Shown one piece after another: positions 63,749 to 64,000 of a stretch of DNA of 64,000 bases (the first letter of the stretch is position 1; each line of letters opens with the position of its first letter). Both the position numbers and the translations under genes were made by a program. Origin of the DNA: Escherichia coli (GTDB taxonomy: Bacteria; Pseudomonadota; Gammaproteobacteria; Enterobacterales; Enterobacteriaceae); the NCBI RefSeq assembly GCF_050920415.1, contig NZ_CP169309.1. One strand, 5' to 3'. Below the pieces are notes generated by a model. It was not told where the DNA came from, made no database searches, and saw nothing but the letters and a program-made list of their open reading frames with translations.

Positions 63749-63868
63749 TGAAGAATCTTTACCGGAGTGTGAGCCAAATCACTCGCGATAAGTTTGAGCG
63801 AACAATGCCACAGGCGTAATGTTGTCCGCTCAGACTCTGACGGCACAGGATTTTGTCCTTCCACACAG

Positions 63869-63912
63869 AAACCGCCATTGGCGGTTTTCCGCTGCATAAT
63901 CCTCAGGATTAT
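63869..63912. promoter_or_regulatory. two adjacent perfect palindromes downstream of ygiV (terminator-like hairpin plus candidate operator)
   Basis: AAACCGCC-att-GGCGGTTT (63869-63887) followed by ATAATCC-tca-GGATTAT (63896-63912), both seen directly. Confidence 0.45.
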
Positions 63913-64000
63913 GTCTATAGCAAAGAGTTGTATATCAAGGCACATTGATGCCTTTATCGCCGTCGGAGCACGTCCGGCGGCGCTATTCACGCTGATCTCC

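Follow-up and report, generated by a model that had tools for sequence, protein, structure and literature searches.

A probable relic of ygiS beside an empty mqsRA site downstream of ygiV in Escherichia coli

The 252 bp that follow ygiV at the end of our window (the whole 64-kb stretch of Escherichia coli DNA that we analyzed) are very probably a non-functional genomic relic, consisting of a decayed ygiS whose two perfect palindromes are by-products rather than regulatory sites. We observed directly how the stretch maps onto its homologs, where the junctions lie, how frequent each allele is in the population, and that the MqsA motif and the genes are absent; we infer that the scar region lacks any function. 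The original prediction had suspected different content at a variable locus, and this was borne out, as the stretch comprises a ygiS scar and an empty mqsRA site. What it had missed is that ygiS is gone and that one of the palindromes, palindrome 1, sits on a deletion junction.

RESULTS AND DISCUSSION

The locus lacks mqsRA and probably runs into parC

The window ends with qseC and qseB on the minus strand, ygiW and ygiV on the plus strand, and then the 252 bases, with ygiV forming the left edge of the variable locus (Table 1). The best match to these bases was NZ_CP169399.1 (strain MFDS1022581), at 100% identity, in which ygiV is followed by a 72-bp partial pseudogene and then by parC. PGAP annotates the 72-bp feature as "hypothetical protein, incomplete, missing N-terminus," partial in the middle of a contig. 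In this near-identical genome, parC is the next gene, 337 bp past ygiV, which puts its start ~86 nt beyond the end of our window, and the annotation of the ygiV-parC interval contains no mqsR, mqsA, or ygiS.

The K-12 layout is ygiV, 204 bp, mqsR, mqsA, 132 bp, ygiS (1608 bp), 137 bp, and parC, and identical spacings are tabulated elsewhere (PMC5120126, Table 1). This agrees with the original prediction, which had placed mqsR-mqsA directly downstream of ygiV in K-12. Its failure to see an MqsR start was also well founded, given that tblastn with MqsR and MqsA returned no match anywhere in the 64-kb window. However, its suggestion that the intergenic region might simply be longer, with mqsR just beyond the window, did not survive. 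Nothing besides the K-12 gene order speaks for reading the 252 bp as the ordinary K-12 ygiV-mqsR intergenic region, and we consider this reading excluded. The K-12 spacer is just 204 bp (PMC5120126), and at that spacing the mqsR ATG would fall at ~63953, inside the window. No part of 63751-64000 aligned to the spacer (L002 436-637), so the conserved K-12 region that the prediction had set against its own idea was not there either, and in the near-identical genome the sequence continues into parC.

The AAGAA directly downstream of ygiV instead marks the exact place of the 927-bp mqsR-mqsA cassette of K-12 (L002 436-1362), an insert that contains the MqsA operators, mqsR, and mqsA. The preceding ygiV 3′ end (63740-63750) is identical to K-12 at 11 of 11 positions. 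The same empty site is found directly past the ygiV stop in mqsRA-free strains with an intact ygiS, as AAGAA in TUM14759 and GGGAA in EC958. Therefore, the window has the empty form of the site and not the product of a sloppy cassette excision. STEC2018-607 also has GGGAA at this position. The lineage is without the mqsR-mqsA cassette at the ygiV-parC site, and no toxin-antitoxin component is present.

The K-12 cassette itself is cleanly inserted, with its 927 bp taking the place of 5 nt, (A/G)(A/G)GAA, directly past the ygiV stop, and there is no evident target-site duplication around it. It brings its own hairpin to the DNA just downstream of ygiV (TGGCGC-N7-GCGCCA, then CTTTCTT).

Table 1. 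Features mapped at the right-hand end of the 64-kb window
Feature	Coordinates	Strand	Description and basis
ygiV	63266-63748	+	Intact, 160 aa; ORF list; Pfam GyrI-like, E=2e-36; ygiV annotated in NZ_CP169399.1
Empty mqsRA insertion site	63751-63755	none	AAGAA; alignments to K-12 and mqsRA-free strains
ygiS upstream spacer	63756-63825	+	K-12 mqsA-ygiS spacer, L002 1363-1432, 69/70 identical
ygiS fragment 1	63827-63859	+	ygiS nt 315-347, 30/33 identical, ungapped; blastn E=3e-7
7-nt filler	63860-63866	none	TCCACAC, between ygiS fragments 1 and 2
ygiS fragment 2	63867-63879	+	Exact 13-mer AGAAACCGCCATT, ygiS nt 896-908, codons E-K-P-P-F
Palindrome 1 (9+1+9)	63869-63887	none	AAACCGCCA-t-TGGCGGTTT; junction of the 631-bp ygiS deletion
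Last 71 nt of ygiS, including TGA stop	63878-63948	+	ygiS nt 1538-1608, YgiS residues 513-535
Palindrome 2 (9+1+9)	63895-63913	none	CATAATCCT-c-AGGATTATG; ygiS coding sequence
First 52 nt of conserved ygiS-parC spacer	63949-64000	+	Alignment to K-12; NZ_CP169399.1 annotation

ygiS persists as collinear fragments

Beyond the empty site, the window showed collinear homology to ygiS and to both of its flanking spacers, all in order. The upstream spacer is truncated short of the elements that would express ygiS; K-12 positions 1433-1463, which hold the -10 box and the ribosome-binding site, are deleted along with the ATG. The core of fragment 1 (63830-63859) is identical to ygiS at 28 of 30 positions. 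For the filler that follows, we found no source in intact ygiS, which contains no sub-string of 63856-63870 of at least 7 nt. Downstream, 63878-64000 matched K-12 at 120 of 123 positions, and tblastn of YgiS against the window recovered only residues 513-535 (22/23). Two native ygiS 3′ hairpins have been kept, at 63937-63954 and at 63958-63982, the latter GC-rich with a 10-bp GC stem. The remnant thus retains residual protein similarity without a complete reading frame, start codon, or promoter, as is characteristic of a pseudogene remnant.

Two further features of this region concern its folding. Positions 63791-63805 and 63822-63836 form a 15-nt inverted repeat that is 87% complementary, and the first deletion junction falls within its right arm. 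Compared to intact ygiS, a G>C change at 63829 and a C>A change at 63834 both raise the complementarity of the repeat. The stop-codon hairpin (63934-63957) differs between strains, with TUM14759 carrying a compensatory double change (AAGGCA/TGCCTT to AAGACA/TGTCTT) and with Z0117EC0005 and N96 reaching a perfect 10-bp stem via two substitutions, the TGA stop being lost through one of them. These changes look like quasi-palindrome correction or selection on 3′ structure.

The palindromes trace to a deletion junction and a wobble base

Both of the adjacent perfect palindromes that the original prediction had reported after ygiV are present, but the arms had been written too short, as each is really one base longer. 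The two share an identical geometry and lie 26 bp apart, and each is single-copy in the window, matching only itself in 64 kb when up to 3 mismatches were allowed. When perfect inverted repeats were counted at an arm length of ≥9 and a loop length of ≤3, there were 7 in the window vs. 1.15 in dinucleotide shuffles. At least one such repeat arose in 0.0034 of 20,000 shuffles of the 252 bp, and two arose in none.

Other perfect palindromes in the window include two AT-rich ones, TTTAGTAAAA-t-TTTTACTAAA at 9464-9484 and AGTAAATGCATTTACT at 9493-9508; this close pair looks operator-like. A GC-rich hairpin at 43370-43396, with 12-bp arms and runs of A and T on its flanks, resembles a bidirectional terminator.

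The left arm of palindrome 1 falls within the 13-nt ygiS island AGAAACCGCCATT, and its right arm is the start of the ygiS 3′ fragment, TTGGCGGTTTTCC, with codons V-G-G-F. A TT microhomology at 63878-63879 marks the junction of the 631-bp deletion. In all four intact ygiS alleles examined, both 9-mers are present in inverted orientation but 631 bp apart, and palindrome 1 therefore did not predate the deletion. It is invariant in the four sister scar genomes that we aligned, and the other nine have match identities that agree with this, though these genomes are too closely related for invariance to carry weight.

Palindrome 2 had been described in the original prediction as ATAATCC-tca-GGATTAT, resembling an operator. 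It turned out to consist of C-terminal ygiS codons, CAT AAT CCT CAG GAT TAT G (His-Asn-Pro-Gln-Asp-Tyr), with an arm base at a synonymous wobble position. In all genomes compared, the innermost base of the left arm is the wobble position of the proline codon, which is CCT in the window, CCC in K-12 and EC958 (8/9 arms), and CCG in the sister genome RMDEC465; the palindrome is perfect only with CCT. The perfect form is also found inside the intact ygiS of TUM14759 and 2014C-3338, and the CCT context was matched at ≥99% by up to 87 genomes, although the 13 scar genomes, whose matches are partial, may be among them. Palindrome 2 is a coding quasi-palindrome that was made perfect by a synonymous polymorphism and that predates the decay of ygiS.

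The scar is present in 13 of 5426 complete genomes

We searched the 252 bp by megablast against 5426 complete E. coli genomes, a set without the window's own genome (a sibling strain of MFDS1022581). The whole stretch was contiguous in only 13 of these, and in nearly all other genomes the left (~63753-63825) and right (63878-64000) parts matched separately. A 101-bp scar probe recovered the same 13 E. coli genomes and no others. Across the set, the mqsRA cassette was present in 2299 genomes, the ygiS body in 4056, and a different ygiS-less allele in 1356 (e.g., STEC2018-607). The accessory status of mqsR, mqsA, and ygiS in E. coli is on record (PMC11390585). The ~270-bp filler of the common ygiS-less allele, carried by a quarter of complete E. 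coli genomes, has no Rfam family and no long ORF. We considered whether this filler (L003 3100-3370, STEC2018-607) was a decayed ygiS or resembled the window, and by comparison it was neither.

No intermediate form of the scar was found in the 5426 genomes, the GTDB species representatives, or the metagenome collection, and the same searches found no foreign donor. The junction 26-mer and the variant-cluster 25-mer each had 0 matches in GTDB species representatives, and the fragment-1 30-mer had 0 in metagenome contigs. The last 20 kb of the window is 100% identical to MFDS1022581 and 98.9% to N96, with ≤96.8% identity to every other genome among those listed. As only these two are close, the lineage that carries the scar has seldom been sampled.

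Two differences among the relatives of the window were also observed. In 12 of the 13 scar genomes, 7 substitutions are clustered within ~20 bp of the upstream spacer (63787-63805; L004 587-605), where these genomes read CGCTATCAGTTTAAGTTAACGATG and the window and all non-scar strains examined read CGCGATAAGTTTGAGCGAACAATG. Neither the remaining E. coli genomes nor the GTDB species representatives contained the cluster, and no local donor copy was found. MFDS1022581 carries an extra 1.34-kb IS2 at the point corresponding to window position ~44353 (L010 353-1690 in NZ_CP169399.1), where it interrupts a fimbrial "pilus assembly protein" gene; the IS2 is absent from the window, and the genomes are otherwise 100% identical.

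Origin of the scar

We propose that three collinear deletions, of about 345, 548, and 631 bp, left only 33, 13, and 71 nt of the 1608-bp ygiS, which encodes a family-5 periplasmic solute-binding protein; the order and number of these deletions are as we reconstruct them. These deletions would also have taken the promoter, ribosome-binding site, and start codon, and the destruction of ygiS was probably independent of the empty mqsRA site. By resolving on TT, the 631-bp deletion would have joined the inverted 9-mers from the EKPPF and VGGF codons, creating palindrome 1. Palindrome 2 would have arisen from a K-12-like 8/9 quasi-palindrome that was perfected by a synonymous C-to-T change in the proline codon.

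It is possible, though on balance unlikely, that the scar instead came from one complex replication-based event, through FoSTeS/MMBIR serial template switching or quasi-palindrome template switching. In that case, the mechanism itself, rather than several independent deletions, would have left the perfect palindromes as its direct footprints. Such an event would fit islands of 33, 13, and 71 nt joined by ~2-nt microhomologies and a 7-nt untemplated filler, as well as the lack of any intermediate allele in the genomes, representatives, and metagenomes searched. Fragment 1 carries three substitutions, and two of them (63829 and 63834) raise complementarity to the upstream arm at 63791-63805; in sister genomes, the stop-codon hairpin of ygiS shows conversion of a quasi-palindrome to a perfect one. 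Still, the counts involved are very small and were picked up only in retrospect, and successive deletions in a rare lineage with 13 samples would equally leave no intermediates. Moreover, a single event is a statement about origin and not function, and it is compatible with the relic explanation. A stronger version, in which a single template switch made or perfected both palindrome 1 and the 63791-63805/63822-63836 hairpin and one of these has since been retained as a ygiV 3′-end structure that shields parC, seems improbable to us.

Possible functions of the palindromes

Some observations run against the relic reading. Two perfect 19-bp palindromes are very improbable in random sequence, and the ygiS fragment that supplied the left arm of palindrome 1 is just 13 nt. 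In addition, the 121-nt scar region is more stably folded than shuffles (z = -3.8), which might suggest selection for structure. If the palindromes were functional, they could be operators for MqsA acting in trans, for YgiV itself, or for another helix-turn-helix protein, and perfect dyad symmetry occurring twice, with equal geometry and so close together, is in keeping with this. However, the MqsA site is 5′-AACCT N3 AGGTT-3′ (PMC4894380), and neither this motif at 0-2 mismatches nor the core ACCT N2-4 AGGT occurs in 63749-64000, although the same search recovered both K-12 operators (L002 564-576 and 596-608, upstream of mqsR at 638). The check for an MqsA operator that the original prediction had called for was thus negative. 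Window-wide counts of 2 exact cores and 15 sites at ≤2 mismatches were at or below shuffle expectation. Furthermore, mqsA is absent from the window and from the locus of the near-identical genome, a consensus scan of 63100-64000 found no promoter-like site for the palindromes to overlap, palindrome 2 lies in coding sequence with a symmetry that shifts with the wobble base, and palindrome 1 was non-existent before the deletion. An operator role is accordingly most improbable. As for an MqsA-controlled mqsRA promoter/operator, with no motif, no mqsR-mqsA operon, and no sigma-70 promoter, that identity was rejected outright.

A role at the RNA level is less unlikely but still markedly improbable. 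Palindrome 1 could have acquired a role as a weak intrinsic terminator, or as a hairpin that stabilizes the 3′ end of the ygiW-ygiV transcript, and in the absence of ygiS it would limit read-through into the essential parC. It lies 120 nt past the ygiV stop and shares its strand with parC, it is identical in all scar genomes aligned, and as RNA it forms an 8-9-bp GC-rich hairpin (-12.5 kcal/mol, z = -2.7; 4 of 200 shuffles were as stable) that is followed by UUUU. Yet the stable GC-rich stem-loop is not matched by a U tract of at least 5 of 8, as the tail, UUUUCCGC, has only four U, three of which are inside the full stem, and a terminator consensus scan found none in the region. A terminator role is also not needed, because the stronger native ygiS 3′ hairpin (63958-63982) is kept downstream and could suffice. 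Intact alleles have no recognizable terminator between ygiV and ygiS, and the 13 genomes are too alike to reveal selection. We therefore continue to favor a decayed ygiS without function.

Two other searches bear on the identity of the region. At E up to 1, Rfam gave no family for the NZ_CP169399.1 locus (the region plus parC). A REP/BIME or other repeated palindromic element was rejected for lack of multiple dispersed copies; the 252-bp query hit ≤4 places per genome, and the places examined were the ygiV-ygiS locus itself.

Implications

The scar matters little beyond correct annotation, as it is an ordinary pseudogene and deletion scar, and PGAP already flags the partial pseudogene in the sister genome. 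It does identify a strain without mqsRA at the K-12 position (in the 64-kb window and the ygiV-parC interval of the sister) and without ygiS. YgiS is a putative deoxycholate-uptake protein, and its proposed functional connection with MqsR in tolerance to deoxycholate is disputed (PMC6918082). Because mqsRA and ygiS are missing at this position, phenotypes credited to those genes in K-12 should not be assumed. More broadly, four allelic states of the ygiV-parC interval are documented across the 5426 genomes, and the locus is a cautionary case in that perfect palindromes can come from deletion junctions and from variation at coding wobble bases.

Comparison with known systems

Like the MqsA operators of K-12, the palindromes are two short dyad-symmetric sequences in the DNA after ygiV. 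However, AATCC-TCA-GGATT fits only 6 of the 10 specified bases of the MqsA site, and the K-12 operators sit inside the 927-bp cassette, which is absent from the window together with mqsR/mqsA and the promoter. Palindrome 1 resembles rho-independent terminators in that, on the ygiV sense strand, U residues come directly after a GC-rich hairpin, but its U tract is 4 residues long and half of its hairpin comes from coding sequence. It is intergenic, GC-rich, and hairpin-forming like REP/BIME elements, but it is single-copy in the window, with arms traceable to ygiS coding sequence.

The common ygiS-less "filler" allele is similar to the window in having no mqsRA or ygiS between ygiV and parC. By contrast, its ygiS promoter and the first 22 coding nt remain, followed by ~270 bp of unrelated DNA and only the last 36 nt of ygiS; it has none of the window's junctions in common and represents an independent event. 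The closest likeness is to the pseudogene relics and deletion scars of other E. coli accessory genes, with which the window shares collinear identity, microhomology junctions, and a lost promoter and start codon. Compared to the usual deletion scars, the one described here is unusual only in its two tiny internal islands and its junction palindrome.
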